A DNA stretch of 64,000 nt from Candidatus Micrarchaeia archaeon (GCA_041500865.1 JBGQMY010000003.1:6728-70727); one strand, 5' to 3'; shown: positions 28,352 to 64,000, counted from the first letter of the stretch. The notes: a model not told the origin generated them from the letters alone. Made by a program: numbers and translations.

Positions 28352-28504
28352 GTGATATACGATGTATGCAAATGCTTAAATACTGATAATGCGCTGACGG
28401 TTGATACAAGAGAAGAATGCCCTTTATTTGGCGTCGGTTTTTCCCTGGGCCAAAACGATTTCTTTTTCCGCAGGCGCTTTTTCTTTGCAAAGAAAAAGGG
28501 CCTT

Positions 28505-35948: not shown

Positions 35949-38900
35949 ATGGCAGCCCTCAAAAACAAGCTACGAAGAGCAGTCGTCTACACGATGATTG
36001 CCGCTAACGCCGGTAATGCGAGCCCGGCATGGCTGCCGCGACATGAAAGATTGGGTGAAACAATGGCTGAAACAACCGTGAAGGGCGTTGAAAAGAAGGA
36101 CGAGGATGCCAGGCTCAAGAAGGGCGCGAAAATGCTTTATGACACGTACAAGAAGCTGTATCCCAAGGTCGATGAGAAACAATACTACATGTACCTTACG
36201 GCTTTCGGCAAAAAGCTGAACATATACAACGTGGAGGCCTTTAACACAAGCATCGGGGACGTAAGGAACATAGGGAATGGCCAGATGACCTTCATGGCGA
36301 TAAAAGAACTTGAAAGGCAGCGCTTGGAGAAGAAGGAGGCTGAAAGCTCCGGAAAGAGCTTTGTCCAGATGCAGAAGGAAAAAGAAACAAGGAGAGCGGA
36401 AACTGCCGGGCAAAGGGCAAAGAAAAGGGAGGCAGTCAAAGAAGAAGTTAGTAAGGTGATTACAGGCGGCGAGATAACGCCAGAGACCAAGCCTGCAAAG
36501 GTAACGGCTCCGGCCGTCATTGCCGGAAAAGGCATATTCGGGCAGACGCAAGGCGTTTTCCAGACGGAACAGAACGTCCTCAAAGGAAGCGACGGCAACG
36601 CAATGCTTGACAGCAGGGGCGCGGTCCAATACGCATATCCTTCAAACATGGCGTCGCTGCAGTCGCTTGGAGTGGTAGATTACAGCGCGCTGAAGGAAGC
36701 CACGGGAAATGATTTCATCGACCAGCTCAGGAAGAGCGAGGCAAAGGGCGGAACGGTCGAAGAAAGGGGCCAGAGGAGCTTCGAGACAACGGCAAGGATG
36801 ATAGGCGCGATAGTGCTTTACAACTCATTCGCATTCGCGGACAAGGCCGGGACAGTCAAGAAAAACCAGCTGAAGGATTATTGCGGCGACGACGGATACG
36901 CGGAAAACCTCGGGCGCGTGCTTTCGGCAAAGCCGCTGAGGAACCAGGGGCAGTTCATAGGCGAAGTGACGTCATTCATAGGGGCATACGTAAAGAACGG
37001 AAAGCTGACCGAGATAAACGGGGAAGGCAAGGACGAGAAGGGCAAGTCCAACGTGGGCATGTATGTCTATTCAATAGCCGCAATCGGCTCCGCATACACG
37101 CAGCGCGTGATAGGCGAAACGTTCGAGAGCCAGATGTCGTACCTCCAGGAAAGGAAGAAGGCCGCGGAGACGCAGAAGGCGGGGCTGGAAGGCCAGGTCA
37201 AGGAAGAGGCAAAGAGGCCCGCTGCCGCGCAGAGAGCCAAAAAATTGGCAGGTGAGGACGCGGAGACGCAGCTGAAAAAGGCTGATGCAGAAATACAGAG
37301 CATAACCGACATGACGGACAGCATCAGCAGCTACAGCTGGTACTACAAGAAGCCCATGACCGTGTCCGAGCTTTACAAAAGGCACAGGGACGAGGACAGG
37401 AAAAGGCTGACAAGCCTGAACGACTATGTCGGGGGCCTAAACATACCGCAAAGGATAAAGAGGCCGTTCCAGGACGCGCTTGAAAACGAAAAGACGCAGA
37501 TGGTGCTGCTCCAGATGGCCATAGAGGAGGCAAACCCCGAAGGGAGGATGACGCTTGCGGAGCTCAGGGAAAAAGGCAACATCTGGAGAAACTACAAGAC
37601 GCTTGTCACGCACAAACTCAAGGAGATAGCGACTTACAAGCTCAACAAGGGCCAAAGACTGATTTACGTGATGCTCAACAACAGGTACGGGGACCTCGTT
37701 GATGCCATAGAGGCAAAGCTGGGGCCTGAGGAGACGGCCAGGTTCATAGTGGACCTTGCAGACCCGTCGCAGGCAAAGAAGCAGGGCATGAGCTACGACG
37801 ACTACATAAGGGCCACGCTCAAGGATAAATGGATAAATGGAGGCATTTCCCCTGTAAAGGATGCAAAGGGCAGCATCCTAAAGGACCCAAGGGGCAACGT
37901 CATAAAAAGAGGCAGAAGCTGCCTTGATGATTACAGGAGCGGGTTCAACAGCAGCTACGGGCAAAAATCCGGCAGCCTGGACAGCCAAAGGTTTCCGGAC
38001 AAGCTGGTTGCGTCGCTTGTCATAGACCACAGGATAACGCAGGCGGAGCTGGACTTCCTGATTGCGAACAGGGGCGACATGAAGCCGGAGGAGGCGCTCA
38101 ACGCATTCAACGCCAAGCTCAACGACGCAAAGAAGAATTTCAACGAGAAGTCATATTCCACGGTAAAGCGCATGGTGGACGAGGCGCAGGGTCTCATAGG
38201 GTTTGACAAGGCGTATTATGAGGAGTTCAGGGACATAATACTTGTGAGGCTGGCCTTGATAGACATGACAAACCGGGCAACCCAGCGCACGTCAAGCCTT
38301 ACGCTGGACGGAATAATTGAAGGCAACCTGTCCGGGGTCAGGGCATTCGGGGCAAAGACGGCGGCGCTCGTTGCCAAGGTTGACGAGATTGCGCCTTTGG
38401 AGAAGATGCCGGACAACATAACCGGCGACGCCAAAGGGGTGCTGCTCCAGAGGGCGCGCACGCAGAGAATCAACGCGTACATAGAGCTTTTCAACAACGA
38501 GTTCTTCACGCTGAACGATGAAAGATATACCAAGATAACGGTGCAGAGGCTGAACGACTTCAAGCTCAGGCTTGACACGTGGGAGGAGGTGCTCAAAACG
38601 ATGAAGGAGGACGACCCGTACCACATCGCGAAGGACACTGTGCTCAGGGCCGGATGCATCCGGACGCTTGAGTCCATGAAGCAAAGGCTTGACGCAATCA
38701 TGAAGGAGGTCGGCGACAAAGGCATTGACCTGAGCGAAATAAAGGACCCTGGCGACAGGTTCCTGCTGGACCTTGTCATAAACGGAAGGGTCATCATCGC
38801 AGGAATCAACGGGTTCAGGTATTACGACAACGTCGCAACCGTGGACAGGCAGGGCTTCATACCCGTGATATTCTACTTCCTGAACAACATACAGCTCAAC

Positions 38901-41399
38901 GCCGAGGAGAACAGGTCGTACCTTGACCATGTGCTCAAAATGCCGGAAGGCAATGGCATAGACGTGTGGGAAGCGCCTGAAACAATAGCGCAGCAGCTGG
39001 AGACGGAAAGGAGCAACCGCATAGAAAACATGAGGTCGGAAGGCTGGAAGACGATAATGGGAAGCAGCGACAAGGCAACCGAGATGTACAGGATGCTGGG
39101 GTTCCAGCAGGCGTATGACTATTACTCCTCCTACCTGAAAAAGAACAAGGACAGCACATACGATTACAGCGACGCATCAGCCCTTGACGCTGAGCTGGAG
39201 CGGATTTTCGGAAAGGACATGCTCGACAACGTGAACCTGTCTGTAAAGTTCGCCATGAACATGTACACACCCAATAGGAATGTCTCCAAATACGACCTTG
39301 ACAGGCTGTCTACCCGGTTCAAGATGGTCCTGGCATCCAACCTTGTCCTGGAGGCGCCGTACTACGACTTGAGCAACACGGCAAAGCAGGGCTCCAAGAG
39401 CATTCCCGTTTCCGTGACAAAGAAGGACGGGGCAAAGGAGAGTGTCAATATCCAGTACCACGACAACATGGTGCAGAGATGGATAGAGGGCTACCGCAGC
39501 GCAAGGATTGGCGGGATATCCGTTGACAAGGACATGATTGAGGGCTTCATAGGCAGCATAGCGCAATGCAAATGGGCAGCGACGCTCAAGCCTGGCCAGT
39601 ATTCCATAACGTTCGAGAACGACCTGCACGAATTGAGGTCTTTCGACGTCACGGTAAGCAAGGTCGGTGGCGACATGAAAGGCGCGGCAGCCAACATAAA
39701 GATAGAGCCGATGTCCACGCTTGAGGACCTGCTGAAGACGCCCGGCGGATTCAGGGCGTACGAGGGCGACAGGATAGTCATGAGGAACAAGGCCGACAAC
39801 AGCGTGGCGCTGGCAACAAAGTCCAATTTCGGGGTTTTGATGGTGGCGAGCGCAAAGGTCGGCGGAAGGGGATTCGAGAATGCCGTAAACCAGGTGTCGC
39901 TGATGAACGACAACCTCGTGCCTGACGGAAGGCTTGAGGAGGGAACGCAGCCCGCATCGTTCTGGACAGGGCTGTACTTTGCCGTTACGAAGAAGGAGGC
40001 CATGTCATTCATCTCAAACAGGCAGATGGCGCTGTACGACATCGCGGCGACCTTCAGGCCAATCCGCGACATCAGGCCCGAGGTGCCTGTCAAGGTGACA
40101 AAAGTCCTTGGCAAGGAAACGCTGGACTTTGCGGCGCTCATAGGCGCCCCAAGCGATGCCGGAATATCCACCACGTGGGTGGATGCCGGCGGAGCGGTGC
40201 ACAACTGGTTCTCGGAGATGGCTGAAGGAAAACTGACAATAGACGAGAATGGGAACCTTTCTGCGCAGATAATGTCAAGGGCGACAGGAACGCAGCTCAT
40301 GCTCGGCGAGCTCAAAACGGAGCTTGACAGGCTTGGCTACACCGACGGCACGCCGCAAAGGGCCATCATACTGCAGCACCTGTTCGGCACAGGGCCGTAC
40401 AACGACAACATGGTAATCGAGGTCGTGGCGACCCAGCAGGGCAACAGGATATTCATAGTGACTAAAGGCGCGCAGAACATGGCACAGGCGGAGATAGGCA
40501 TTGAAATAGACAGGCAGACCATATCGGAAATGAGGTACGGATACCTCACCGACAGGCTAAGGCTCTTCATAGCGACGCAGACGCAGCTGAAGCTCGGGAA
40601 CGAGATAATAAACGTAAGGGTTGAGCTTGGGAAGACCGCAGCCGATTTCCAAAGCATGAAGAGGTTCAAGGACATCAAGACTGCGATAGTGAACGCATAC
40701 CTCAGCTCGAACATATTCGGCGCGGGATGGAGCACGGTGCTTTCTGAAAGCGGGAATGCGGTGACAGTGCAGCCGTACCTTGTGGCTTACCTGGAGCACA
40801 TGATGCCCAACGACCTGCAGAGGATAATCGAGACCGGCGGCGGAGTTTCCGGAATCCTGGAGACCGCAAATGCGGAATTCGGCGCCACCCCGCAGCTGAC
40901 AGGCATAACAGTCGGGCAAGGGGGGGACTGGATGGTAACCCCGAGCCTGAACCTGTACCAGAGATGGTTCACGGGAAGGCATTTTGACCTGTACCAGAGC
41001 GCTTCGGTGCACTACAGGTTCCCCACAGCCGGTCTCGTGGACAGGGTAAGCAAGGGGCATCTTGGGGGAACCTGGGGGGGTGGGGGGAACCTCGGATTCG
41101 ACTACATAATAGACAGGAACTGGAGGATGGGCCTTGGCGGAGGGTATGAATACGCCCCAATCTCCATACAGGCGCCTGTAAGCGTGTTCAGCTCCAGCGC
41201 CAGCATATCGTTCAGGAACAGGCTTTCGCTTGAGGTGATGGCCAACTACCAGCTGGACAAGGACTGGGGAACGGAGAACCTGCCTGTGCTGGGCCGCGGA
41301 GTCGTCGCAGGCAAGGCCGCGCTTGTCTACAACATCGGAAGGCTTGACTTCACCCCAAAGGAAAAGGGAACAGCAGCGAAGAAGGGCGGTAAGAAATGA
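35949..41399 (+). CDS. giant protein (1816 aa) of unknown function; Gly-rich C-terminal region
   Basis: Single uninterrupted ORF; possible RR-containing N-terminal signal (KLRRAVVYTMIAANAGNA); C-terminal 'GGTWGGGGNLGFDYIIDRNWRMGLGGGYEY'; stop overlaps start of next gene. Confidence 0.7.
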   Translation: MAALKNKLRRAVVYTMIAANAGNASPAWLPRHERLGETMAETTVKGVEKKDEDARLKKGAKMLYDTYKKLYPKVDEKQYYMYLTAFGKKLNIYNVEAFNTSIGDVRNIGNGQMTFMAIKELERQRLEKKEAESSGKSFVQMQKEKETRRAETAGQRAKKREAVKEEVSKVITGGEITPETKPAKVTAPAVIAGKGIFGQTQGVFQTEQNVLKGSDGNAMLDSRGAVQYAYPSNMASLQSLGVVDYSALKEATGNDFIDQLRKSEAKGGTVEERGQRSFETTARMIGAIVLYNSFAFADKAGTVKKNQLKDYCGDDGYAENLGRVLSAKPLRNQGQFIGEVTSFIGAYVKNGKLTEINGEGKDEKGKSNVGMYVYSIAAIGSAYTQRVIGETFESQMSYLQERKKAAETQKAGLEGQVKEEAKRPAAAQRAKKLAGEDAETQLKKADAEIQSITDMTDSISSYSWYYKKPMTVSELYKRHRDEDRKRLTSLNDYVGGLNIPQRIKRPFQDALENEKTQMVLLQMAIEEANPEGRMTLAELREKGNIWRNYKTLVTHKLKEIATYKLNKGQRLIYVMLNNRYGDLVDAIEAKLGPEETARFIVDLADPSQAKKQGMSYDDYIRATLKDKWINGGISPVKDAKGSILKDPRGNVIKRGRSCLDDYRSGFNSSYGQKSGSLDSQRFPDKLVASLVIDHRITQAELDFLIANRGDMKPEEALNAFNAKLNDAKKNFNEKSYSTVKRMVDEAQGLIGFDKAYYEEFRDIILVRLALIDMTNRATQRTSSLTLDGIIEGNLSGVRAFGAKTAALVAKVDEIAPLEKMPDNITGDAKGVLLQRARTQRINAYIELFNNEFFTLNDERYTKITVQRLNDFKLRLDTWEEVLKTMKEDDPYHIAKDTVLRAGCIRTLESMKQRLDAIMKEVGDKGIDLSEIKDPGDRFLLDLVINGRVIIAGINGFRYYDNVATVDRQGFIPVIFYFLNNIQLNAEENRSYLDHVLKMPEGNGIDVWEAPETIAQQLETERSNRIENMRSEGWKTIMGSSDKATEMYRMLGFQQAYDYYSSYLKKNKDSTYDYSDASALDAELERIFGKDMLDNVNLSVKFAMNMYTPNRNVSKYDLDRLSTRFKMVLASNLVLEAPYYDLSNTAKQGSKSIPVSVTKKDGAKESVNIQYHDNMVQRWIEGYRSARIGGISVDKDMIEGFIGSIAQCKWAATLKPGQYSITFENDLHELRSFDVTVSKVGGDMKGAAANIKIEPMSTLEDLLKTPGGFRAYEGDRIVMRNKADNSVALATKSNFGVLMVASAKVGGRGFENAVNQVSLMNDNLVPDGRLEEGTQPASFWTGLYFAVTKKEAMSFISNRQMALYDIAATFRPIRDIRPEVPVKVTKVLGKETLDFAALIGAPSDAGISTTWVDAGGAVHNWFSEMAEGKLTIDENGNLSAQIMSRATGTQLMLGELKTELDRLGYTDGTPQRAIILQHLFGTGPYNDNMVIEVVATQQGNRIFIVTKGAQNMAQAEIGIEIDRQTISEMRYGYLTDRLRLFIATQTQLKLGNEIINVRVELGKTAADFQSMKRFKDIKTAIVNAYLSSNIFGAGWSTVLSESGNAVTVQPYLVAYLEHMMPNDLQRIIETGGGVSGILETANAEFGATPQLTGITVGQGGDWMVTPSLNLYQRWFTGRHFDLYQSASVHYRFPTAGLVDRVSKGHLGGTWGGGGNLGFDYIIDRNWRMGLGGGYEYAPISIQAPVSVFSSSASISFRNRLSLEVMANYQLDKDWGTENLPVLGRGVVAGKAALVYNIGRLDFTPKEKGTAAKKGGKK

Positions 41400-43003
41400 G
41401 AATGCTGAAACTGGCGTTTGCGATTTGCCTGCTCGCCGGCGTTTCGCTGGCGCTGCAGTGGGGGGGAAGCGCGACCAGCAACGTAAGGTACGACGGCGGA
41501 AGCATAGCGACTTCCTGCATTGGCGAGCCAAGGCAGGACCCGTTCGACCTTTACGCCAACATACTGCATACGCTAACGGTCAACGCAAGCCTGACGCAGA
41601 ACGGCGTTGAGCCGGCCGAGTTTTCCTCAGGGCCGGCAAACCTGGACATAAGGGTGACGACGAACACCAGCATAGGCGCCATACTCGCGTCCTCATCGCT
41701 TAATTTCAACCAGAATGCGCAGCCTTCTCCTGCCGCAGCGAACCTTGCGTTTGACAATGCGGAATACAGCTACATAAGCAGCAAGTATCCGGTCTGCATA
41801 AACGAGGACCCCTCAAGGCCCGACGACAGGGGCGTGCATTACCTCAACTACATTTACGGCAGCGCAACGTGCAACCATGCAATGAGTGCCGCGGACGCAG
41901 TAACCGTCAATGTCGGATACAAGCCGTGCATGGCGGGGCCTGTCAGCGGCATGGGCAAGGGATACATGTACTGCACCGGCGGAACGCTCAAGGTCAATGG
42001 GCTGAACGCAGGCACGTTTTCATCCAGCCAGCAGTCATTCAGCACGACGGTAAATCTCGCAACAGGCACGACATCCATTCCCGTGTCAGTCACATACCAG
42101 TGCTACTTCGTTTTGGAAAAATACCTCAACACCGGGGACGTCCAGCCGATTGAACACCTGATATACCAGATGCCTGGCGGAGTGCCGATAACGCAGACTG
42201 TCAACATACCCATAAACAGGGTCAATCCGCCGCAAATCAACCTCGTGCCGTTCATAACGCTGAACAACACCAACTATTATACCGGGACGCATGTAACCGT
42301 AAACAAGGTCAATACGAAATTCGACATATCGTTCTTTGTCAACAGGACGGACAATCTCGTGCTGATAGAGACGCCATACCTGAACTGGTCAATAACGTCA
42401 ACGCCGCCCGAGCTAATCACCAGGACATACAGGGACTTCAAGCTCGTCCCTCCGCTCACTGTAGGGACGCCGCACCATCTGGTTCCGTCAGGCACAACGC
42501 CGCCCATAACAATAACGGTCTGCAGGCCAGGATTTGACACTGACACTATCACGCTGAACATCAACCAATGGAGGTCAATAATAGAGAGCAGCTACGACGA
42601 CAACAGCATAACAATAACGTTTGACTGCAGCAGCCTGGACAATCCCATGTGCACGTTCAACCCAAGCACCCTGATAACGTATCCTGGCCAGACGAAGATG
42701 ACGAACATGAGCTGCTACGACAAGAGGACTATGGAGCCCATGGACTGCCCCTCATACAGCGATGCGTCAATAACCCACGCAAACGGGGAATTTTCGAGCC
42801 ATTACCTACCCCTGGCATGGACGTATGACATCAGCGAGAATGCGACCAACCTGGTCAATGTAACCGCAATAGGAGGCACGAACCCTGACGAGGGGACTTA
42901 CAGCGACACTGTCACGGCGACGTTCCCTGGCAGCTACGTCCAGCCGTTCAGTTGCAAATTCAACCTTGAATGGGGAAGGCCCGACTGCAGGTATTACATG
43001 TAG
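41396..43003 (+). CDS. secreted Cys-rich, N-glycosylation-sequon-rich protein, translationally coupled to the giant ORF
   Basis: Signal peptide MRMLKLAFAICLLAGVSLALQW; ~20 Cys; >15 NxS/T sequons; ATGA overlap with 35949..41399. Confidence 0.7.
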   Translation: MRMLKLAFAICLLAGVSLALQWGGSATSNVRYDGGSIATSCIGEPRQDPFDLYANILHTLTVNASLTQNGVEPAEFSSGPANLDIRVTTNTSIGAILASSSLNFNQNAQPSPAAANLAFDNAEYSYISSKYPVCINEDPSRPDDRGVHYLNYIYGSATCNHAMSAADAVTVNVGYKPCMAGPVSGMGKGYMYCTGGTLKVNGLNAGTFSSSQQSFSTTVNLATGTTSIPVSVTYQCYFVLEKYLNTGDVQPIEHLIYQMPGGVPITQTVNIPINRVNPPQINLVPFITLNNTNYYTGTHVTVNKVNTKFDISFFVNRTDNLVLIETPYLNWSITSTPPELITRTYRDFKLVPPLTVGTPHHLVPSGTTPPITITVCRPGFDTDTITLNINQWRSIIESSYDDNSITITFDCSSLDNPMCTFNPSTLITYPGQTKMTNMSCYDKRTMEPMDCPSYSDASITHANGEFSSHYLPLAWTYDISENATNLVNVTAIGGTNPDEGTYSDTVTATFPGSYVQPFSCKFNLEWGRPDCRYYM

Positions 43004-46908: not shown

Positions 46909-47670
46909 CTATTCCTGAAGCCAGATGGGCTTTCCGTCCTTCATATCTATGGACGCGGCCTGGCTTGCAAAAAGATTAATCATGTCCGGGCTGTTGATTT
47001 GCCTGGCATAGCCAAGCGCATCCATGCCTGCCTTGTCTATTGCCTTGGCATCAGCGCCCTTGCTTACCAGGAAAGCGCATGTTTCGCTGAATCCCCTCAT
47101 TGCTGCCCAGATGAGCGCGGTCCTGCCCCATACAGTATCACTTGCGTTTATGCTTGCGCCATTTTCAATAAGCAGGCTGCATACGCCAATCCTGCCCAGG
47201 TATGCCGCCCACATGAGCGGGGTCCTGCCTGACTTGTCTGTTGCATTGACGCTTGCGCCTTTCTTTATCAGGAGTGCACAGGTGCTGGCTCTCCCACGGT
47301 ATGCTGATTCCATGAGCGGGGTGATGCCATTCACGTCAGTCGTTTCCATGTCCGCGCCATTTTCCAGCAGGAATGCGCATATCCTTTTGTTGCCTGCGCC
47401 CGCAGACCCCATGAGCGCGGTTTTGCCGCATTCGCTCTTTGCATTGACGTCCGCGCCAGCCTTGATGAGCCGCAGGATTTCTTCTGCATTTTTCGAGCCC
47501 TGCCATTGGAATTTTGCGTTCCATGCCGCATTGAGGAGTTTTTTGTCCAGTTCCTCCTGCAGGTCAGTGCGGAGCTTGCTTGGTTTGTCTGGCTCAGGCT
47601 TCATCTTTTTGTCAAAAGGCGGCTTTCTGTTAGTTGCACTGCGCCTTTGTTTCTCCGTTTTCTGCGCCAT
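46909..47670 (-). CDS. ankyrin-repeat protein
   Basis: 253 aa, about 5 ANK repeats; first of three tandem ANK genes with duplicated promoter regions. Confidence 0.75.
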   Translation of the reverse strand: MAQKTEKQRRSATNRKPPFDKKMKPEPDKPSKLRTDLQEELDKKLLNAAWNAKFQWQGSKNAEEILRLIKAGADVNAKSECGKTALMGSAGAGNKRICAFLLENGADMETTDVNGITPLMESAYRGRASTCALLIKKGASVNATDKSGRTPLMWAAYLGRIGVCSLLIENGASINASDTVWGRTALIWAAMRGFSETCAFLVSKGADAKAIDKAGMDALGYARQINSPDMINLFASQAASIDMKDGKPIWLQE

Positions 47671-47702
47671 GTGTCCGTTTATGTTAGAAAAAGATTAAAA
47701 GG

Positions 47703-48452
47703 TTATGCGGGGCCCGGCGACTGCCGCAAGCTGGCAATATAGGGCTTTCTTTTGGCCGGACCCATGGACGCGGCGCGCCTAAGCAGGTCAACCGTGCCTG
47801 TATGCTCGTTTTCCTGTGCCCATACGTATGCGGTCATGCCCCCATTGTCCTTTATGCTGATGTCTGCGCCTTTTTCAAGCAGCAGCATTGCCGTTTCCCT
47901 GTATCCGATTTCAGCGGCATATGTAAGCGCGGTCCTGCCGAAGTTGTCCCTTGCATCCACGTTTGCGCCTTTCCCAATCAGCAATGCGCAAATGCCGGCC
48001 TGTCCGCCAAATGCCGCATGCATCAGTGCAGTCCTTTCAAGGCTGTCTGTTGCGTCCACGATTGCGCCTTTCCCAATCAGCAGGGCGCATATGGCCATCA
48101 GCCCTGACGATGCGGCGTGCATGAGGGCAGTTCCGCCGACGTTGTCCTTTGCATCGATGGCTGCCGCGTTGTCAATCAGCATTATGCATGTCTCGGCATG
48201 CCTCCGCTGTGCGGAAAGCATCAGCGCGGTCATGCCCCTGCCGTCTACTGCATCTGCCTGCGCGCCCTGTTCCAGCAGCATTTTGGCCTTGCCTGTCTCG
48301 CCGTCCATGGCCGCCTGCAGAAGTTCCAAGCCCAGCCTTTTCTGCCGCCTGTTGGCGGGCCTCTTGCACCCATCCGCCTCTGGCTTGAAAAATGCCCTTT
48401 CCGGCTTTTTTTCGCTTTTTGGGATTCCGAATTTACCCAATGTGAGGAGCAT
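47703..48452 (-). CDS. ankyrin-repeat protein
   Basis: 249 aa, about 5 ANK repeats. Confidence 0.75.
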   Translation of the reverse strand: MLLTLGKFGIPKSEKKPERAFFKPEADGCKRPANRRQKRLGLELLQAAMDGETGKAKMLLEQGAQADAVDGRGMTALMLSAQRRHAETCIMLIDNAAAIDAKDNVGGTALMHAASSGLMAICALLIGKGAIVDATDSLERTALMHAAFGGQAGICALLIGKGANVDARDNFGRTALTYAAEIGYRETAMLLLEKGADISIKDNGGMTAYVWAQENEHTGTVDLLRRAASMGPAKRKPYIASLRQSPGPA

Positions 48453-48533
48453 GTGTCTGTTTATGCATAAAAAGGATTAAAAGGTTATGCCGGGCCTGGC
48501 GGTTGCCGCAAGCTGGCAAGATAGGACTTTCTT

Positions 48534-49607
48534 TTATCTGGTTGCCCACTTATAGATTTCAACGCCCAGGAGAAACTGAGGCGTTGCGCCGCTGCTATCT
48601 ATCGCGTTTTCGTCCGCCCCATTTTTCACAAGGAATTTGTATACTTTCCTGTTCATTCCAAAAACGGTTTCTGCGGCATAGTGCAGTGCTGTCCTGCCTT
48701 CCTTGTCGCCCATATCAATAAACTTTTTCACATTCCCGCCGGCTTCAGCATATTTTTGTATGAGGAGGTTGCAGATTAAAGTCCTGCCTGGCAACGCAGG
48801 AATGGCTGCGGCATGGTGCAGGGATGTCCGGCCGTCATTGCTTTTTGCGGCAATCAGCTTCTTTATGTCCCCTCCGGATTTTGCGTATTCTTTTATAAGA
48901 AACGCGCAGGTTTTTATGCTTCCGTAAGCTGCGGCATACATGAGCGGGGTGTTGCCGCAGTTGTCCGCTGCGTTCAGGTCGGCGCCATTTTCAACCAGAA
49001 TCTCGCAGGTTTCTGTGTACCCGTAGCATGTTGATGCTGCAGTTATGAGCGCGGTTTCACCGTATTCGTTTCTCGCATTCACGTCAGCGCCGTTATCAAT
49101 CAGCAGATTGCATGTCTCGGGATTACGGGCTGCAGCATATATGAGCGGAGTGTTGCCGAACTTGTCCCTTGCGTCCACATCCGCCCCGGCTTTCAGAAAA
49201 GTCTCAATCCCTGCAGAGTCACAAAAAAATGTGTTGGTTATAGCCTCATCAAGAAGCATGCTGTCCAACCGCGCCTGTTCCATCTTGGAAATCGCCGGTT
49301 TCGCATCTGCTGCGGCCTTCCTTTGGCTTTTGTTTTTCTTGGAATAGCAATTCAGGACTTTTATGCAGTTTGCCAATTTTCTCTGCGCCATTTCCAAGCT
49401 AATGTCATTCCAGCAGCCTCCGCACGCCAGCGCGGCTGCGAGAATTCCGGGCATTACCCACGCCGGAATGCGGATTCCGATTTTTTTATTGGCGGCTGTT
49501 GGGTTATCGGCTGCGTCCTTTGCCTTTCTCGTTATCATGCATATTTGATTTTCGCTGTTTTTTGCGCCATCCGCTGCCTTTGCCAAAAACGGCTTTTCTG
49601 CTGCCAT
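48534..49607 (-). CDS. ankyrin-repeat protein
   Basis: 357 aa, about 7 ANK repeats (…GNTPLMYAAAYGSIKTCAFLI…). Confidence 0.75.
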   Translation of the reverse strand: MAAEKPFLAKAADGAKNSENQICMITRKAKDAADNPTAANKKIGIRIPAWVMPGILAAALACGGCWNDISLEMAQRKLANCIKVLNCYSKKNKSQRKAAADAKPAISKMEQARLDSMLLDEAITNTFFCDSAGIETFLKAGADVDARDKFGNTPLIYAAARNPETCNLLIDNGADVNARNEYGETALITAASTCYGYTETCEILVENGADLNAADNCGNTPLMYAAAYGSIKTCAFLIKEYAKSGGDIKKLIAAKSNDGRTSLHHAAAIPALPGRTLICNLLIQKYAEAGGNVKKFIDMGDKEGRTALHYAAETVFGMNRKVYKFLVKNGADENAIDSSGATPQFLLGVEIYKWATR

Positions 49608-54864: not shown

Positions 54865-56055
54865 TCACTTTGAAACGGCCGAGCCTATGCCGCAGAAGCG
54901 CCACCGCTGGCCTATCCTCCTGCTTATGGCGATTTTGTCGCTTCCGAAGACGATTATGGGCCGCTTTAGCGAGATGGCAGCTATGCCCTTGTTGAGCTTC
55001 GCGATTACGCCTACCGAGGTCGCGGAATGCACGTTTATCAGCAGCGGCTCCCCCATCCTGAGCGGGGCGTTGTCTATGTCCTTCCTGTCTATCAGCTCGT
55101 ATTTCATGCTTATTGAGGAAACCGGGTCGGGTATCGCGCCCTTTATGCTTATCGTGTTCCCTATCAGCGTGTCGGATTTGGTCAGCGAAGGGTCGAGGAA
55201 CGTGCCCATGCCCACAAGGCCGCCTGGCCTTGCCTCCTCTATGCTCTCCTCCCCTGCCCTAAGGCCGGATATGGAGGTCTTAAGCGGCGTGAAGCTGTCC
55301 TCAGAGCCGTATCCCGGCTTTATCTCTATCTCGTCGCCAACCTTGAACGTTCCTTTCACGATGGCGCAGCCGAGCACGCCCCCTTTCAGGTTTTTTATCT
55401 CCTCGCCAGGCCTGTTAACGTCAAAGCTCCTTACGACGTATGCGACAGGGACATCCGATTTCTCCCTTTCAGACGCAACCATGGTCTTGTCAATCTGCTC
55501 GACGAGGTATTCCAGGTTAAGCGCATGCGGGGCCGAAATGGGCACTATTGGGGCGTTCTCGGCAAACGTGCCTTTCACGAATGCCTTTATCTCATTGTAA
55601 TTTTCAATCGCCTTTTCCTTTGTCACCAGGTCTATCTTGGTCTGCACTATGATTATTTTCCTTACGCCCATCTTTTCCAGTATCATGAAATGCTCCTTTG
55701 TCTGCTCCTGCGGGCATTTTTCGCTTGCCGAAATCAGGAACAGCGCGCCGTCTATCACGCTTGATGCGGATATGGCGGTCGCCATGAGCGACTCGTGGCC
55801 CGGCGCGTCCACAAAGGAAAGTTTTCTTACGAAGCTGCACTTGCCGCCGCACTCAGGGTGCTTGTCAGAAACCCAGTATTTACCGCAGCTTTCGCACTTG
55901 TAGATGTTCAAGTCGGCGTAACCGAGCTTTATCGTGATTCCCCTTTTCAGCTCCTCGCTGTGCGTGTCGGTCCATTTTCCTGTCAATGCCTTGACAAGCG
56001 TGGTCTTGCCGTGGTCCACGTGCCCGAAGAGACCTATGTTAAGCTCAGGTTGCAA
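54865..56055 (-). CDS. eif2g: translation initiation factor 2 gamma subunit (aIF2-gamma)
   Basis: G-domain 'GHVDHGKTTL', 'DAPGH', 'QTKIDL'; Zn-ribbon insert CxxC…C…C. Confidence 0.9.
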   Translation of the reverse strand: MQPELNIGLFGHVDHGKTTLVKALTGKWTDTHSEELKRGITIKLGYADLNIYKCESCGKYWVSDKHPECGGKCSFVRKLSFVDAPGHESLMATAISASSVIDGALFLISASEKCPQEQTKEHFMILEKMGVRKIIIVQTKIDLVTKEKAIENYNEIKAFVKGTFAENAPIVPISAPHALNLEYLVEQIDKTMVASEREKSDVPVAYVVRSFDVNRPGEEIKNLKGGVLGCAIVKGTFKVGDEIEIKPGYGSEDSFTPLKTSISGLRAGEESIEEARPGGLVGMGTFLDPSLTKSDTLIGNTISIKGAIPDPVSSISMKYELIDRKDIDNAPLRMGEPLLINVHSATSVGVIAKLNKGIAAISLKRPIIVFGSDKIAISRRIGQRWRFCGIGSAVSK

Positions 56056-56061: not shown

Positions 56062-56457
56062 TCACTCCTTCTTGGCTTCCTTTGGCTTAGGCGGCTTTGC
56101 GACACTGTCTATCGCCACGCTGCCTTCAGTCACCGCGGTTGCGTTGACCTGGACGATTTCCTGGGTGTATGAGTCGCCCCTTACGGTCTTCTTGTGCCTC
56201 GCGCCCTTGTCCTTTGACTTGTAGCCTGGTCCAGACGAAAGCAGCGCCCTTTCCCTTCTCTGGCCGTGGATGTCATGCCTCATCGGTATTCCGCTCGTGT
56301 CGCTTCCGCCCCTGAGCCTTATTGTCCATCCCGCAAGCCCGATGAAGCCGGCGTCCAGCTCCTCGCCGACCTTCTTTCCGACAAGGAAGTGCTCCTTTTC
56401 CGCAGGAACCTCCACCTGGTATGTCTTTCCGCTTTTTGTGCCTATGTTTAATATCAT
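56062..56457 (-). CDS. rps6e: 30S ribosomal protein S6e
   Basis: 131 aa S6e family ('…GGSDTSGIPMRHD…'); classic S6e-aIF2g adjacency. Confidence 0.8.
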   Translation of the reverse strand: MILNIGTKSGKTYQVEVPAEKEHFLVGKKVGEELDAGFIGLAGWTIRLRGGSDTSGIPMRHDIHGQRRERALLSSGPGYKSKDKGARHKKTVRGDSYTQEIVQVNATAVTEGSVAIDSVAKPPKPKEAKKE

Positions 56458-56634: not shown

Positions 56635-57339
56635 TTGATTATGGAACAGAGGCAGAAGCCCATCCGCGGAGCCATGCAAAAGGCGAAATCGCTGTTTTCA
56701 GGCAAGGCGAAGCCCGAAGGCGCGAGAAGGTTGAACGAGAAAGAGCAGAAGGAGTTGAATGACAGGCTCTTTGCCGCGATTTGGGATTATAAAAAATTAT
56801 TAACTGACGAAATGCAAATCGAAACCCATATTGTAGCGCGTTATACTTCAAGGTCGCGCATCAGGAGGCTGTTGAGGCTTGGCGCAGACGTGGATGCAAA
56901 GGACAGCGGCGGCGAGACCCCGCTCACGCGGGCCGCATGGAAAGGCGATATGGACATTTGCAAAATCCTGATTGAAAACGGGGCAAACCTGGAGGCAAAA
57001 GACGCGTATTGGGGAGATACGGCATTGATGCTTGCTGCCCGCAATGGCAATCAGTATTTGGTTAAATACCTTGTTTCGCGCGGGGCTGATGTGAACGCAA
57101 GGAACAATAATGGCGAAACGCCTTTGGTTCTGGCTGTTGGCGGCAGCACGACAAAGGAATGGAAGACTGTGCGTGTCCTTCTTCAGAGCGGCGCAAACCA
57201 GCTTGGAGCCGCTTTTATGCATGCCAGATTTGACGTGGCTGAATTGCTGAAAAATGCAATGATGAATCAGCTTGAAAATGTAATCGGAAAAGAAAGCTTC
57301 GCGCTGTTCATGCGCTCGTTCAGGGAATGCACTGCCTGA
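56635..57339 (+). CDS. ankyrin-repeat protein with C-terminal …FMRSFRECTA tail
   Basis: 234 aa; paralog of 58359..59093 (N-terminal 'KSLFSxKAKPExARxLNEKEQKxLND' and tail conserved). Confidence 0.75.
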   Translation: MIMEQRQKPIRGAMQKAKSLFSGKAKPEGARRLNEKEQKELNDRLFAAIWDYKKLLTDEMQIETHIVARYTSRSRIRRLLRLGADVDAKDSGGETPLTRAAWKGDMDICKILIENGANLEAKDAYWGDTALMLAARNGNQYLVKYLVSRGADVNARNNNGETPLVLAVGGSTTKEWKTVRVLLQSGANQLGAAFMHARFDVAELLKNAMMNQLENVIGKESFALFMRSFRECTA

Positions 57340-58358: not shown

Positions 58359-59093
58359 TTGATTATGAAGCAGAAGGAAAGGCAGGAAAGCCATGTATTC
58401 CTGCAAAAGTCGAAATCGCTGTTTTCGCGCAAGGCAAAGCCAGAATCAGCAAGAAAGCTAAACGAGAAAGAACAAAAGGATTTGAATGACATGCTCTTTG
58501 CAGTGATTTCAAAGCATAAAAAATTTACAGAGGATGCCACCTCTTATGAGCCTGCCCAAATCCACATTGTATCATATCCTATATCAATTATCCGAATCAA
58601 GAGGCTGCTTAAAGCCGGAGCGAATCTTGAAGCAAGGGACAATGAAGGCAGGACTCCGTTAATGTATGCTATATTTACTGAGCATATGGACATCTCCAAA
58701 ATTCTTGTTGAAAATGGCGCAGAGATTGAGGCAAAGAACAATGACGATATGACAGCACTGATGTTTGCTGCAGCCTCAGGTAATCATAAGATAGCTAACT
58801 ATTTAATTTCGCGGGGGGCAGACGTAAATGCAAAAGATAGAAATGGTCATACCCCATTGGTTTTGGCTGTCCATAATGACTTTGTTAGATCTGGCAGCGG
58901 CCACAACATCCTTAAAACCGCCAAGATCCTGATAAAGAACGGGGCCATAATAGGCCAGAATGCACTCATGTGCGCGGGTAGGGATAAAACGATTGAGTTT
59001 CTTAAAAAAGCAATGCTGGCCCAGCTCGAAAAACAGATGGGAAAACAAAATTTCTCGCTGTTTATGCAATCTTTTAAGGAATGCACTGCCTGA
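58359..59093 (+). CDS. ankyrin-repeat protein with C-terminal …FMQSFKECTA tail
   Basis: 244 aa; paralog of 56635..57339. Confidence 0.75.
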   Translation: MIMKQKERQESHVFLQKSKSLFSRKAKPESARKLNEKEQKDLNDMLFAVISKHKKFTEDATSYEPAQIHIVSYPISIIRIKRLLKAGANLEARDNEGRTPLMYAIFTEHMDISKILVENGAEIEAKNNDDMTALMFAAASGNHKIANYLISRGADVNAKDRNGHTPLVLAVHNDFVRSGSGHNILKTAKILIKNGAIIGQNALMCAGRDKTIEFLKKAMLAQLEKQMGKQNFSLFMQSFKECTA

Positions 59094-59124
59094 TTTTTAA
59101 AACGTTCCGGGGACAACTACAAAC

Positions 59125-59208
59125 GCCAGGGTGGCAGAATCCGGTAATGCGCCAGACTTGAGATCTGGTGCCCGCAAGGGCTCAGGGGTTCAAATCCCCT
59201 CCCTGGCG
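59125..59208 (+). tRNA. tRNA-Ser (anticodon TGA), long variable arm
   Basis: GCCAGGG…CCAGA-CTTGAGA-TCTGG-TGCCCGCAAGGGCTC-AGGGGTTCAAATCCCCT-CCCTGGC-G. Confidence 0.85.
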
Positions 59209-59363
59209 AAGCCCCTTTTCTTCGCGAAGAAAAGGTCCTTGGGTTCAAAAGAAGGCGTTTTGTAAAAGCCCAGGGAAAAACCGACGCATCAACCGTTTTT
59301 CGCCGAAGCCTTTTTTCAAAAGGCTTCGCGGAAAGAAAAGCTATTTTTGGCGCCTGTGGGCGC

Positions 59364-60158
59364 TTATTGCCTCAGCAGTTTTTCAGCAGCGTCTAGTTGC
59401 TCTTTTGTACCCCTGACTACAAGCGTGCCGTCGTCCTCTCTTGTTACTGTCATTTGTGCGGGCTTTGCTTCAAGCGCCCGCGCCCCCTTCGGGGTCCCAC
59501 CCAACGACGCCACCCCGAGAAGCGCGGACGACCCGTTGTTGAGGTTGACGTTCCTCCTGAAGTAGTAGTCGAGGAAGTTGTAGCCGCGGGCAACAGGGCC
59601 GACCCTCCCGGAACCATCAACCCGCCACAGACGGCTGGCTTGTGGGTTGCGGGAACCAATTTCCTTTCCTGTCGGTATGCCATGCTTGCCATCAAGAGGA
59701 TACCAACCGTCCTTTTCCGGGAAGTTGGGAATAATATCAATAACGTTTGATCTTATCATAATCTCCTTGCCGTCAATTTCAAGCGAGTAGTCCGGATGCT
59801 CTGAAACCAGGATGGCGTTCTTCTCGCTTCCGTAGTCTCCTATTGGGAATATCCAGCGCTCCCTTGTTTCCGGGTCTGTGTATACGATTGCCTTAAGCTC
59901 CTTGCTGAACATCTTGCTCCTGTTGAATTCAGTTCTAGGCTCGACGTATGCGGCCATCGTGCCTGTCCAGCACGGAAAAACCTCAACTATTGATTTATAT
60001 CCATCTCCTGCAAACGCCTTTTCCATCTTTGCGTTTGAGGCGATTATCATTCCCGTCTCTGCGACCCTTTGGATTGCAACTTTGGCTGAAACGCCCTCTT
60101 TGTAGGGTATGAATGCCTTTAAGCCCTTTTCACTTGTCAGTTGGACTGTTCCTGCCAT
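59364..60158 (-). CDS. paralog of the DGR target protein, with VR-like NNC-codon segment and downstream GC hairpin
   Basis: 264 aa; aligns to 13077..13988 (…DYGSEKNAILV… / …DYKGEKNVALV…); region 59515-59600 encodes 'GYNFLDYYFRRNVNLNNG' followed by GGGGTGGCG…CCCCGAAGGGG. Confidence 0.6.
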   Translation of the reverse strand: MAGTVQLTSEKGLKAFIPYKEGVSAKVAIQRVAETGMIIASNAKMEKAFAGDGYKSIVEVFPCWTGTMAAYVEPRTEFNRSKMFSKELKAIVYTDPETRERWIFPIGDYGSEKNAILVSEHPDYSLEIDGKEIMIRSNVIDIIPNFPEKDGWYPLDGKHGIPTGKEIGSRNPQASRLWRVDGSGRVGPVARGYNFLDYYFRRNVNLNNGSSALLGVASLGGTPKGARALEAKPAQMTVTREDDGTLVVRGTKEQLDAAEKLLRQ

Positions 60159-60246
60159 GGATATGGCTGTGCATCAAAGTCCTTTTAAATTTATCTTTGA
60201 ACACGTTTTACCACAGTTGGCAGGAGGTTAGCAACGTGGCATATTA

Positions 60247-61149
60247 TTATTTCGGCAGCCGTTGGGCTAGCGCATCAAGCTCTTTCAGCACCCTGTCCGG
60301 CGAATATTCCTTAAGTTTCTTGACAACGTTTTTGTCGTCCAGCATCTTCCCCTCAAGCGGGATTGCAACCCCGTCAACGGTTGAAGGGTCGTTCATGTGC
60401 AGCGAAAACGGGCAGCGGCCGAGCTTGCCTGGCGGCGTCTGCGAAGGGTCTATGATTATGCGGCCAGGCAGCTTTTCATGGCCCCCTGAAACCTCGAGGC
60501 CCGTCTTCCTTTTCACTATGGCTGTCCACCTGCCCACGAACGAGCCGAGCGGGTCGGACTTGCTGTACCCAAGGTGCCTGCTGTAGAAATCAGCCGCAAC
60601 CGGCTTTTCCAGCATCAGGTAGACGTGGAACGAGCTGCCTGTGTACATGGCAAACGGCTGGAACGGCGCCAAGGCGGAAAACTCCTTGTCTGCCTTTATG
60701 GTTTCAAGCAGTGTCTTTGCAGCAAGCTGCGCATCCTCGCCGCTCGCAGTCCCGCCCCTGTCTATGTCTATGAATATCCTGTCAATCGTTTTCCCTTTTT
60801 CGCCATTTACGGCATAGAAAAAATCGGCAAGCTTGCGCGGCGGGAAATAGCGCCATATCTTTCCCTGTAACGGAGTAATATTGTCTTTTGCGTCCTCAAG
60901 GTGCCTGCCTTCGCTTCTTTGCTTGAGAAAGGCGTCGTCAACGCCTTTTGCCAGCTCCTCGGAATACAATGGAGAAAGGTATGAGCCGCGGTTCAGGAAC
61001 GGCTTTGCGGCTTTCGGAATCAGCACCTTCGCCGCTATTTCTTTTCCCTTAAGGAAACCTGCCAATTTGGCAGCAACCCTAGAATAATAGCCAACAACGT
61101 CCAAGTCCCCGAACGGATGCAGCGCGTCTGCCATGGAAGCATAGCGCAA
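60247..61149 (-). CDS. archaeo-eukaryotic primase-polymerase, LigD polymerase-domain-like (PrimPol/PolDom)
   Basis: AEP motifs I 'FIDIDRGG', II 'TGSSFHVYLML', III 'GRIIIDPSQ…GKLGRCPFSLH'. Confidence 0.55.
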   Translation of the reverse strand: MRYASMADALHPFGDLDVVGYYSRVAAKLAGFLKGKEIAAKVLIPKAAKPFLNRGSYLSPLYSEELAKGVDDAFLKQRSEGRHLEDAKDNITPLQGKIWRYFPPRKLADFFYAVNGEKGKTIDRIFIDIDRGGTASGEDAQLAAKTLLETIKADKEFSALAPFQPFAMYTGSSFHVYLMLEKPVAADFYSRHLGYSKSDPLGSFVGRWTAIVKRKTGLEVSGGHEKLPGRIIIDPSQTPPGKLGRCPFSLHMNDPSTVDGVAIPLEGKMLDDKNVVKKLKEYSPDRVLKELDALAQRLPK

Positions 61150-61409
61150 CCAACGCTTAAAAGGCTAATTGATTGGGTGCAGATAATTCCTTGTACGCGT
61201 TTCAGCCCTGCCAGCCAAAGGAAGCGGATTTTTCGCTGATGCATTCGTCTCAAAACAAAGGGTTTCCTTCGTCATTCTGCAAAGGCAGCATAGCAAACGT
61301 TATAAACCAAGCTTCCCAAGCATAAAAAGTGGCTGAAACAATAAACGAGAACACCAGCGGCAGGCCGGTTTCCCCTGCGCGCTGCAGCGTAAGGGAAGCG
61401 AGCAGGCAG

Positions 61410-62870
61410 ATGAACGTAAGGAAGCTCAGGAAGATGGGCATTGACTTTTTTGTCGGCGTGTCAAAGGAAAGGGCGGAAATGCGAAGGCCGCTGGCAATAC
61501 CGATATCTTCCCCCACAGAAGAACAGAGGCTTGTCGGGAAGGCAATCTCCATAAAAGTTGTCGGAAGGAGCAGAAAAAGATACGGCATAATGAGCGACAG
61601 CGAAACGACAGTGAACGAAAACGGCAGGACATTCAAGGTCCTGGACGCAAAGTTCATAGACAACGGAAACATCAAGAAGATGCACCTGGAATATGACGTA
61701 ACGGAGCTTGTGCAGGCAGGGGCAAGGCCGGAAGAGATACCTATCGTGGAGTTCACTGCAGACGAAAGCGGCGTGCTGACCTACGCAAGCAGGCAATATG
61801 AGGCAAACATCGAAGAATATGGTAATAGCACAGGCTATTCGCTCGGCAGGCCAAGGGACGGCGTTGTCGGAAAATACATGATAAATTCATTCATGGAGGG
61901 CAAGGAGCGCGAGGAGATGGAAAATATATTCCGGGAGGCAAAGGGCGGATTCCACGTCTTGAAGGAGATAAACCTCCCGTTCTTCCTCATGTGCCTAAGC
62001 TGCTGCATGGGGCTGCAGTGCAAGGGCAGCAACATGACGAACGTCGCCTTGTCCTACGTCGTCAAAGGCGGCACGTTCTTTTACGGGGCAATAAACAACT
62101 CCAGGCTCAGCGAAAAGGAATGGAGGCAGGTCTGGGAGGCCATGGCAAAGGAAAAGCGCTGGTGGAAAATGCCCAGGAGACGCGAAATAAGGAAGGCTGA
62201 CAGGCGCGATATGGGCAAGGGCGGCGAAAGGCTTATCGCGCTGCTTTCGGCGGCGGCATGGGCGTCGTCATCTCCGTCAAACGGAAAAAGGCAGGACAAG
62301 GCAAAGGAAGACGCAATGATTGCCGTTCCTGTAAGTAAAGCCGCGGCAGCCGCAGAAACCCAAAAATATTTCTCGCAAAAGACATTCCGAGGCATAATGG
62401 AAAGGCTGGAAAGCAAAACAAATGCAGGGGCAAAGGCCAAAGCGCCTGTTGCGGCAGCTATGTCCATGCTTGGCATAAGCGCATTTGCAAGGATGGACAT
62501 CCGTTCTGTCAAGATTGCGTTCATGCATGCCGCGGCACAGCCCTGGCCGTTGCACCATGCGGCAATGGCGCGCACGCCATGGGCTGCAAAGGCAGTTTTC
62601 ACGTCAGCCTTGCCATCAGCTTCGCCTGCGGCGCAAAGGCGCGCAAGCCCGGCTTTTGGCAGGGCGCGCAGCAAGGCGGCAAAGGCAGCAATTGGCTATG
62701 CCATGATGATTGCGGCTGCTTTCACCAGGCATGCGAAACGCAAGAAAGCAAGGAAAAATGGCGATGCTGGCGGAATAATGCTGAACATACTGTCCTATAT
62801 CGCATCAGGCGTAAGGACATATATGCAGCTTAGGCAGGTTTCATACTACCCTTATGCCGAGCATCTTTGA
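61410..62870 (+). CDS. hypothetical protein: conserved ~250-aa N-domain plus Ala/Lys-rich low-complexity C-terminus
   Basis: Paralogous to the ORF starting at about 63056 (…GRSxxKYGIxSDxE…ENGRTxKxLxAxFIDNGNxKxMxxEYDxTELV…GVVGKY…FYGAINNS…). Confidence 0.4.
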   Translation: MNVRKLRKMGIDFFVGVSKERAEMRRPLAIPISSPTEEQRLVGKAISIKVVGRSRKRYGIMSDSETTVNENGRTFKVLDAKFIDNGNIKKMHLEYDVTELVQAGARPEEIPIVEFTADESGVLTYASRQYEANIEEYGNSTGYSLGRPRDGVVGKYMINSFMEGKEREEMENIFREAKGGFHVLKEINLPFFLMCLSCCMGLQCKGSNMTNVALSYVVKGGTFFYGAINNSRLSEKEWRQVWEAMAKEKRWWKMPRRREIRKADRRDMGKGGERLIALLSAAAWASSSPSNGKRQDKAKEDAMIAVPVSKAAAAAETQKYFSQKTFRGIMERLESKTNAGAKAKAPVAAAMSMLGISAFARMDIRSVKIAFMHAAAQPWPLHHAAMARTPWAAKAVFTSALPSASPAAQRRASPAFGRARSKAAKAAIGYAMMIAAAFTRHAKRKKARKNGDAGGIMLNILSYIASGVRTYMQLRQVSYYPYAEHL

Positions 62871-63055
62871 GGCCGTCCTCATCCGAACCCATAGCGTTAC
62901 TGTTGCGGTTTGTCATAGCCTTCGTCATTGGGCGAAGAAGCCATGGCATCATTTAAAAACCAGACTGGGCAACCGTAAAACGTGGGAATCGATATAATTG
63001 AAAACAGGAGCGGCAGCCCGAAATCGCCTGTCTCCTACCAGATACGCCAGACCGC

Positions 63056-64000
63056 AATGCAGAACAGGATGGACAGGCTGGCGTGCTACACCATAAACAA
63101 TTACGTGGGCATGTACAAGGAAATCGTCAACCCAAAAAGCTTCCTTGTGCCCATATCATCTGTCGCTGCAGGCCAGAGGCTGATAAGAAAAACGATACAT
63201 ACTGAAACGGTAGGCAGGAGCGACGAAAAATACGGCATAATAAGCGATGGCGAAAGATTCGTCTCGGAAAACGGCAGGACGCTGAAGAGGATAGAGGCAA
63301 CGTTCATAGACAACGGAAACGTAAAGAGGATGCAGGTTGAATACGACATAACGGAGCTCGTGAATGCCGGCGCAAAGCCGGAAGAGATACCCATACTGGA
63401 GTTCACGACCGACGCCAACGGCGTGCTGATATACGCAAGCAGGCAATACGACGACAACATAGACGCCTACAAGAGGAAGACGGGATATGATAAAGGAGTT
63501 TACAGGGACGGCGTCGTCGGAAAATACAACATCAAGAGCTTCATGATAGGAAGGCAGCAGCAGGAGATGGAAAACATATTCCAGGAGACAAGGTCCGGAT
63601 TCCACGTAATAAGGGAGATAAACGTTCCTTTCTTCCTGAGTTTTGGCCTGCACTGCAAGGACAGCAACATGACGAACGTCGTTGTCTCGTATATCATGCA
63701 GGACGGGATGCTTTTCTACGGCGCAATAAACAACTCCAAGCAGAGCGACAGGGAGTGGAAAAGGGTATGGATAGGCATAACCAAGAGGAAGTTCTGGAGG
63801 ATAAGGGCAAGGAAATTCAGGAGGGAAAGGATTGACCCGAGGGAAGTTGGAATTGGCGGCGCAGCCATGCTGCAGTTCGCCGCGCTGGGCCCGGCGGCAT
63901 CAATGGGATTTTCCGGAATGGAAACAAGGGAATCAAGGCTTCTGGCGCGCTTTGCAAAGGGCGGGGCGGCATTCGGGAACGCAAGGCCGCCTAAAAAAGG
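63056..64000 (+). CDS. paralog of 61410..62870 (runs off window end)
   Basis: Open frame from ATG 63056 to window edge with >50% identity to N-domain of 61410..62870. Confidence 0.4.

Follow-up and report, generated by a model that had tools for sequence, protein, structure and literature searches.

The stretch of DNA analysed here, 64,000 nucleotides from Candidatus Micrarchaeia archaeon (GCA_041500865.1 JBGQMY010000003.1:6728-70727; the window), carries near its 3' end a gene for a primase-polymerase (AEP) within a group of four genes that follow a tRNA-Ser gene. We found that this AEP is a stand-alone, divergent member of the PolDom/Prim-PolC class of polymerases, distinct from replicative PriS and from the PrimPols of plasmids and viruses, and that the region around it is ordinary chromosome of a DPANN-type archaeon and no mobile element. 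A repair role related to that of LigD is our best reading of the gene, because homologs in other archaea show gene linkage with a ligase and the LigD phosphoesterase (PE). The block, taken from the tRNA-Ser to the window end, was followed for 4.6 kb past position 64000 on contigs retrieved with the public AEP record P0001, such as that of locus L001. An earlier note on this DNA had listed a paralog of a diversity-generating retroelement (DGR) target, an AEP and two tandem paralogous genes 3' of the tRNA-Ser; the coordinates and translations agree (Table 1). We call the DGR-target paralog orf264, after its 264 aa, the tandem paralogs the 5xx family (513 and 529 aa, copies A and B), and the ankyrin gene on the other side of the tRNA Ank2.

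The AEP is 100% identical to P0001 over 295 aa, with the ATG at 61134 as its start. The reading frame is open to a TTG further upstream, and an exact look-up of the 300-aa product from that codon returned no record. A TATA-like box at a suitable distance supports the ATG over the TTG and would fit a leaderless transcript. The motifs quoted in the earlier note (FIDIDRGG, TGSSFHVY and IIIDPSQ...CPFSLH) are present letter for letter within 60247-61149. They correspond to motif I (D123xD125), motif II (TGSSFH, residues 165-170) and motif III (D229, followed by SQTPPGKLGRCPFSLH). In an alignment of 39 family members the DxD (D123, D125), the TGxSFH (165-170) and D229 are invariant, with S.TP.GKL.R.P.SLH following the last of these. 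R49-G50 and Y96-F97 are also invariant in the alignment, and are candidate equivalents of the conserved Arg (R53 in the M. tuberculosis protein) and Phe of PolDom.

The family is widespread among archaea. We collected 184 homologs of about 290-320 aa, with 42-64% identity to the window AEP in other species, the closest of which are from Micrarchaeota. Hosts include Micrarchaeota, Woese-, Pace-, Aenigmat- and Nanoarchaeia, Iainarchaeum and many Methanobacterium, with single genomes of Hydrothermarchaeota, Methanocellales, Methanosarcinales and Bathyarchaeia. Most of these proteins are labelled "hypothetical protein" in public records, and one JGI record says "DNA primase".

The window AEP alone had no significant match in Pfam, NCBIfam, PHROGs or the PDB sequences (phmmer), and its link to PolDom came only from fold comparison and family-level Pfam scans. 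In the fold comparison, the highest scores were obtained with the LigD PolDom of M. tuberculosis (18.1), the LigD Pol of P. aeruginosa (17.5), Prim-PolC of M. smegmatis (17.2) and the Methanocella paludicola polymerase for non-homologous end joining (NHEJ; 17.1), each with 226-227 residues aligned at about 3 Å. PriS proteins followed at 11.6-12.7, CAPP at 9.9, and the mobile-element primases RepB', NrS-1 and pRN1 ORF904 at 5.5-7.4. Foldseek ranked the matches in the identical order, and all of the best matches in both comparisons were AEPs. Motifs I, II and III thus lie intact on an AEP fold, as in other members of the superfamily, and that fold is nearer to PolDom than to the other AEP clades, PriS among them. 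Because this ranking puts PolDoms above both PriS and the mobile-element primases, we class the window AEP with PolDom.

The family-level Pfam scans agree with the fold. PF21686 (LigD_Prim-Pol) matched 22 of the 39 aligned members at E<0.1, with scores around the gathering threshold. Matches spanned the profile from one end to the other (positions 4-248 of its 254; 25-35 bits), and four members (P0007, P0031, P0067 and P0073) reached 28-35 bits. The earlier note's description of the gene as a LigD-like primase-polymerase is therefore upheld by the fold searches and by PF21686 on family members.

Gene linkage in other archaea ties the family to DNA repair. We surveyed 80 loci with AEP homologs from GTDB species genomes, 14 of Methanobacterium type and 66 others from several DPANN phyla; open reading frames (ORFs) were called, clustered and searched with profile hidden Markov models built from the clusters. 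A full-length ATP-dependent ligase follows the AEP on the same strand, 0-88 nt downstream, in 12 of the 14 Methanobacterium-type loci, and in M. oryzae the ligase gene, as called, shares 4 nt with the end of the AEP gene at its stop. Methanobacterium-type loci also contain UDG, Fpg/Nei and a second ligase within 7 kb. In 10 of the 66 other loci, from Micrarchaeota, Woesearchaeota and Aenigmatarchaeota, a stand-alone LigD 3'-phosphoesterase (PF13298, E 1e-37 to 1e-42) was found within 2 kb of the AEP, in varying orientation. Within the same distance, an HhH-GPD glycosylase occurred in six and a calcineurin-type metallophosphoesterase in seven, and short LigD-like ligases (318 and 335 aa) were present in two of the 66.

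Some of these arrangements recur. The PE, the metallophosphoesterase and the AEP form a three-gene set in L041, L044 and L077, and the AEP, PE and HhH-GPD glycosylase form another in four Micrarchaeota loci (L030, L040, L043 and L048). In L032, L034, L039, L042, L054, L064 and other Methanobacterium loci, the stretch one to six genes downstream of the AEP-ligase operon holds two to five tandem ATP-cone genes (proteins of about 93-99 aa) and then DUF72, a family-4 UDG, Fpg/Nei and the second ATP-dependent ligase. These surroundings are a dense repair neighbourhood conserved across the genus. In addition, 11 loci of Woese- and Pacearchaeota (L014, L016, L023, L025-L028, L036, L038, L049 and L088) encode, one to five genes downstream from the AEP, a product of about 130 aa that matches PF18894 ("putative phage metallopeptidase", HExxH); Kae1 and an Obg-like GTPase are often present as well. 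This proximity might reflect nothing more than synteny within the lineage, or else a functional tie to repair.

On balance we favour, with some reserve, a role for the window AEP as a template-dependent repair polymerase that fills gaps or breaks independently of Ku and feeds an ATP-dependent ligase. The enzyme would bind a short gap or processed break and add a few (ribo)nucleotides to the 3'-OH in a template-dependent manner, using H170 and a metal site formed by D123, D125 and D229. The nick would then pass to an ATP-dependent DNA ligase predicted to be encoded elsewhere in the window genome. In other archaea, this "split LigD" route may also take in the stand-alone LigD 3'-phosphoesterase, the HhH-GPD glycosylase or the metallophosphoesterase. 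By analogy with mycobacterial Prim-PolC and LigC, which fill short gaps in base excision repair (BER) apart from Ku and are operonic with Fpg in some species (PMC5663958), the route is probably Ku-independent. The neighbour pattern also matches the expectation for a LigD split up into individual genes, an arrangement described for Methanocella (PMC4797286).

Several observations weigh against this assignment. About 65% of the AEP homolog loci have housekeeping neighbours only. No ligase, phosphoesterase, glycosylase or Ku gene adjoins the AEP in the window, L001, L004 or L091, and because no partner gene is adjacent in the window lineage, its repair context is borrowed from distant homologs. 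At the sequence level, the window AEP itself scored 12.2 bits (E 0.13) against PF21686, under the gathering threshold of 27.4 bits, and a profile of the AEP family found no PolDom chain among the PDB sequences.

We considered two other cellular roles. The AEP could be the polymerase of a classical Ku-dependent NHEJ system with separate Ku, Pol, PE and Lig genes, its partners lying elsewhere in the genome, but this is improbable. In a census in which Pfam was run on the 124 immediate neighbours in 65 loci, 97 families matched, and neither Ku nor an integrase was among the 25 most frequent. The glycosylases linked to homologs (HhH-GPD, and UDG and Fpg in Methanobacterium) point instead to excision or single-strand-break repair. 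Archaea seldom have Ku: of 243 archaeal genomes with a LigD-type ligase domain, 230 lack it (PMC7719229). The same study correlates NHEJ with large genomes, whereas DPANN genomes are small. As the alternative to a mobile element, the earlier note had named an NHEJ locus on the chromosome with Ku and ligase genes beside it; no such partner adjoins the gene.

Less probable again is that the AEP serves the cell as a second primase, for repriming or for replication. The AEP does belong to the right superfamily with all catalytic residues intact, it is kept in reduced DPANN genomes, often among housekeeping genes (S12, Kae1, Obg-like GTPase), and the JGI label mentioned above names a homolog as a primase. 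However, no PriL-like or helix-bundle domain is fused to it or encoded next to it, the replicative primase of DPANN is reported to be a PriS-PriL fusion (PMC10250227), and the linkage to ligase and PE fits repair. We therefore retain the gap-filling repair polymerase as the preferred role.

The earlier note had also suggested an integrated plasmid or virus at the tRNA-Ser. That such an element, or what is left of one, entered at the tRNA 3' end and brought the AEP along to prime its replication is very improbable. What speaks for it is that the gene content beside the tRNA differs between relatives on both sides, that orf264 and Ank2 have low GC content at third codon positions (GC3; 0.577 and 0.457), and that none of the other fetched loci has a homolog of orf264. 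Against it, the AEP lies outside the variable slot next to the tRNA and is syntenic in relatives, and its fold is that of PolDom and not of the mobile-element PrimPol clade. Searches of 2.9 million IMG/VR contigs, PLSDB and a phage collection returned no relatives of the AEP family, and integrases are not among the frequent neighbour families of the census.

Extending the contig, as the earlier note had proposed, revealed neither an integrase nor an attR. Past the window end, L001 carries the 529-aa 5xx protein, a convergent 122-aa gene, the chromosomal gene for HMG-CoA reductase (HMGR), and proteins of 232 and 432 aa with no significant family match, after which the contig ends. None of the genes between 59.2 kb and the contig end encodes an integrase, and neither the window nor the 4.6-kb extension yielded an integrase, a ligase or a phosphoesterase. 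Ku was not detected in the window or the extension either, although no direct search was made for it and this result comes from Pfam on the scanned ORFs and from the neighbour census. The earlier note's remark that integrase, Ku and ligase are missing up to the window end thus also holds for the 4.6 kb beyond. At up to three mismatches, only the tRNA itself matched the tRNA-Ser 3' end in L001, and a general repeat search returned no repeat touching 59124-59209. The tRNA-Ser is a landmark only, and no attachment site.

Composition, the other comparison that the earlier note had proposed, is host-like in the block. Its tetranucleotide correlation with the window is 0.948, the highest of any segment, and GC3 is 0.645 for the AEP, within the core range of 0.62-0.73, and 0.63 and 0.675 for the 5xx copies. 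The low GC3 values belong to Ank2 and to the DGR cassette (0.52).

Gene order agrees with residence on the chromosome. On the 306-kb contig of L004, whose AEP is 85% identical to that of the window, the order is HMGR, the 122-aa gene, a 533-aa 5xx homolog, DUF4352, AEP, CorA, a 170-aa gene, tRNA-Ser(UGA), an acyltransferase and, further on, S6e and aIF2-gamma. In L091 it is HMGR, the 122-aa gene, 5xx, a 330-aa gene and AEP. The order HMGR, 122-aa gene, 5xx, a variable gene and AEP is common to L001, L004 and L091, and in L004 the synteny extends beyond the AEP to the translation genes, so that the AEP stays between HMGR and S6e/aIF2-gamma in this lineage. The chromosomal frame that is stable thus consists of HMGR, the 122-aa gene, one 5xx gene, the AEP, the tRNA and the translation genes. 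Three slots within the frame vary. Between tRNA and AEP, the window has orf264, and L004 has CorA and the 170-aa gene; between AEP and the conserved 5xx gene, the window has a second 5xx copy; and on the other side of the tRNA, the window has Ank2, which is missing in L004. At most, orf264 is a single-gene insertion beside the tRNA. The four genes of the block do not make up a single functional block but are a chance neighbourhood of resident and strain-specific genes.

The window contains a genuine and complete DGR at 11676-13988, with a reverse transcriptase, a template repeat (TR), and a variable repeat (VR) inside the target gene (Table 1). The TR and VR cores differ at TR adenines only, at about 22-24 adenine positions. 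The DGR target protein had no PHROG match. The cassette and the adjoining ORF at 10689-11567 have a GC content of 0.42-0.47 and a GC3 of 0.48-0.52; because these values are below the rest of the window, they suggest a more recent acquisition.

The product of orf264 is 28% identical to the target of this DGR (tblastn E 4.5e-13), which bears out the earlier note's term "DGR-target paralog". We found no significant match for it in Pfam, NCBIfam or PHROG, the only match being a sub-threshold Secretin_N (E 0.049, 14.3 bits, cut-off 28.2). Its closest known counterparts are the DGR variable (target) proteins of DPANN archaea: it is homologous to the window target, and it retains the CCCCGAAGGGG element after the VR. 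Unlike a current target, its VR-equivalent (about 59480-59620) departs from the TR at non-adenine positions and by indels, with 24 non-adenine mismatches, 16 adenine mismatches and seven gap columns. The possibility that it is a second VR of the window DGR was ruled out by these non-adenine mismatches and indels, which also indicate that the gene is not mutagenised by the window TR. We therefore regard orf264 as a frozen, strain-specific paralog that this TR does not diversify. A TATA-like box ahead of its ATG suggests that it has its own, probably leaderless, transcript.

The two 5xx copies are tandem paralogs with Ala/Lys-rich tails, the second of which runs off the window, as the earlier note had described. 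They are 50-52% identical over about 300 aa (E about 1e-96). Copy A has an N-terminal core of about 290 aa, made up of a beta-sheet subdomain and a PAS-like subdomain, followed by a low-complexity Ala/Lys-rich tail, and it has a C-terminal motif (ILSY..G.R.....R..SYYPY.E) in common with its close relatives. Across the family, a core of about 220-290 aa is common to the members and the low-complexity tails are unrelated. Searches with the full-length 513-aa protein were swamped by matches to the tail, and hence the N-terminal domain was used as the query. It retrieved five clusters at 90% identity among 5.8 billion proteins, and exhaustive HMMER searches gave 12 representatives among 1.84 billion, which confirms that the family is very small. 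No match to Pfam or PHROG was found for the family, nor one to NCBIfam for the window copies.

Copies A and B represent two subtypes, each of which occurs alone in relatives. Orthologs of copy B lie at the same position in L004 (533 aa) and in L090 and L091 (512 and 524 aa). Copy B is the copy conserved in place, and copy A is a lineage-specific tandem duplicate. A TATA-like box precedes the GTG start of each copy by about 25 nt. A convergent homolog of the 122-aa gene (27-93% identity) follows every 5xx member examined, including those of the distant L092 and L093, and because of this constant association the two genes are a conserved two-gene module. The genes overlap slightly at their 3' ends in close relatives and in L092, and an 81-aa ORF lies between them in L093. 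A functional link between the AEP and the 5xx family was ruled out: the distant members in L092 and L093 have no AEP nearby, and the gene that intervenes between AEP and 5xx varies among close relatives.

Table 1. Positions of the features discussed, in window coordinates unless a locus is named.
Feature	Position	Strand	Details
DGR reverse transcriptase	11676-12779	-	Pfam RVT_1, 3.1e-17
DGR template repeat (TR)	12789-12897		
DGR target gene	13077-13988	-	
DGR variable repeat (VR)	13295-13403		inside the target gene
aIF2-gamma	54865-56055		
Ribosomal protein S6e	56062-56457		
Ankyrin-repeat regions	900-1600, 1977-2742, 3250-4790, 24000-24430, 28850-28970, 47000-49200, 56635-57339, 58359-59093		the last is Ank2
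tRNA-Ser (anticodon UGA)	59124-59209	+	ARAGORN; Rfam RF00005, 60.7 bits
Intergenic spacer	59210-59363		three short GC/AT hairpins, cccttttcttcgcgaagaaaagg, gaagccttttttcaaaaggcttc, gcgcctgtgggcgc; read from sequence
orf264, diverged DGR-target paralog	59364-60158	-	264 aa; tblastn
TATA-like box of orf264, AAATTTAAAAGG	60182-60193	-	24-35 nt upstream of the ATG; read from sequence
AEP, stand-alone LigD-PolDom-type primase-polymerase	60247-61134	-	295 aa; ORF open to TTG at 61149
TATA-like box of AEP, CCTTTTAAG	61156-61164	-	about 23-30 nt upstream of ATG 61134; read from sequence
5xx copy A	61329-62870	+	513 aa
5xx copy B	62982-64000 and beyond	+	GTG start 62982; first 339 codons in window, 529 aa in full; L001:4035-5624
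122-aa gene	L001:3708-4076, L004:6520-6888, L092:9522-9890, L093:4440-4811		

Other features of the window were recorded in passing. The translation markers aIF2-gamma and S6e are archaeal, and there are five tRNA genes. The hairpins in the spacer after the tRNA-Ser look like terminators. A palindromic intergenic motif (AGGCCCTTTTTCTTCGCAAAGAAAAAGG-like hairpins) recurs at 5126-5277, 23932-23974, 28448-28505 and 59210-59363, and two of its copies are immediately adjacent to tRNA genes, one to tRNA-Pro at 28505 and the other to tRNA-Ser at 59209. Ankyrin-repeat genes are unusually many, with periodic repeats of 99 nt and 123/126 nt. The ankyrin paralogs at 56635-57339 and 58359-59093 flank the acyltransferase and have their N- and C-terminal regions in common; their GC3 values are far apart (0.587 and 0.457). 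Two tandem ankyrin genes carry at their 5' ends an 86-nt direct repeat with 86% identity (47668-47753 and 48450-48535), probably a duplicated promoter or leader region. A very large ORF (35949-41399, 1816 aa) is overlapped at its 3' end by 4 nt by a 535-aa ORF (41396-43003), and the region 35949-43003 has a strong positive GC and AT skew.

Recognising this tRNA-adjacent AEP as a resident gene, probably of repair, removes a false mobile-element call. It also ties a family mostly left as hypothetical proteins to LigD, Prim-PolC and NHEJ polymerases by structure and gene linkage. Little is known of DNA repair in DPANN, and few archaea have Ku; PolDom, PE, ligase and glycosylase make a concrete set of enzymes that can be tested biochemically, and Methanobacterium, in which the AEP is operonic with ligase, has cultured strains. 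More tentatively, and with somewhat less than even confidence, we raise the possibility of an uncharacterised, widespread, Ku-free archaeal "split LigD" pathway of PolDom, PE, metallophosphoesterase or HhH-GPD glycosylase, and ligase, possibly a main route of gap or strand-break repair in genome-reduced DPANN and Methanobacterium, alongside a separate new 5xx/122-aa module. The rare 5xx/122-aa pair adds modestly to the known proteins that are specific to DPANN lineages.

What is new is a divergent, mostly unannotated archaeal branch of the known LigD PolDom/Prim-PolC polymerases. Identity to LigD PolDom (Prim-PolD; PDB 2IRU, 2FAO; PF21686) is 15-21%, and unlike it the AEP is a stand-alone gene with no fused ligase or PE domain, has an extra helical stretch and showed no linkage to Ku among the most frequent families of the neighbour census. 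Mycobacterial Prim-PolC of LigC-associated BER (PDB 5OP0, 6SA0) is a protein of about 330 aa with a specific C-terminal extension formed by alpha8 and Loop 3 (PMC5663958); the AEP family, compared by length only, is shorter (about 295-310 aa), and in the window no ligase is adjacent. The Mpa Pol of Methanocella paludicola (PDB 5DMU) is part of an archaeal Ku/Pol/PE/Lig system, Ku included, whereas no Ku was seen here and the AEP family is a separate and much more divergent branch for which HMMER gives no connection to the PDB PolDoms. With archaeal and eukaryotic PriS and the Nanoarchaeum PriS-PriL fusion (NEQ395), the window AEP has in common the AEP catalytic core and a DPANN host.

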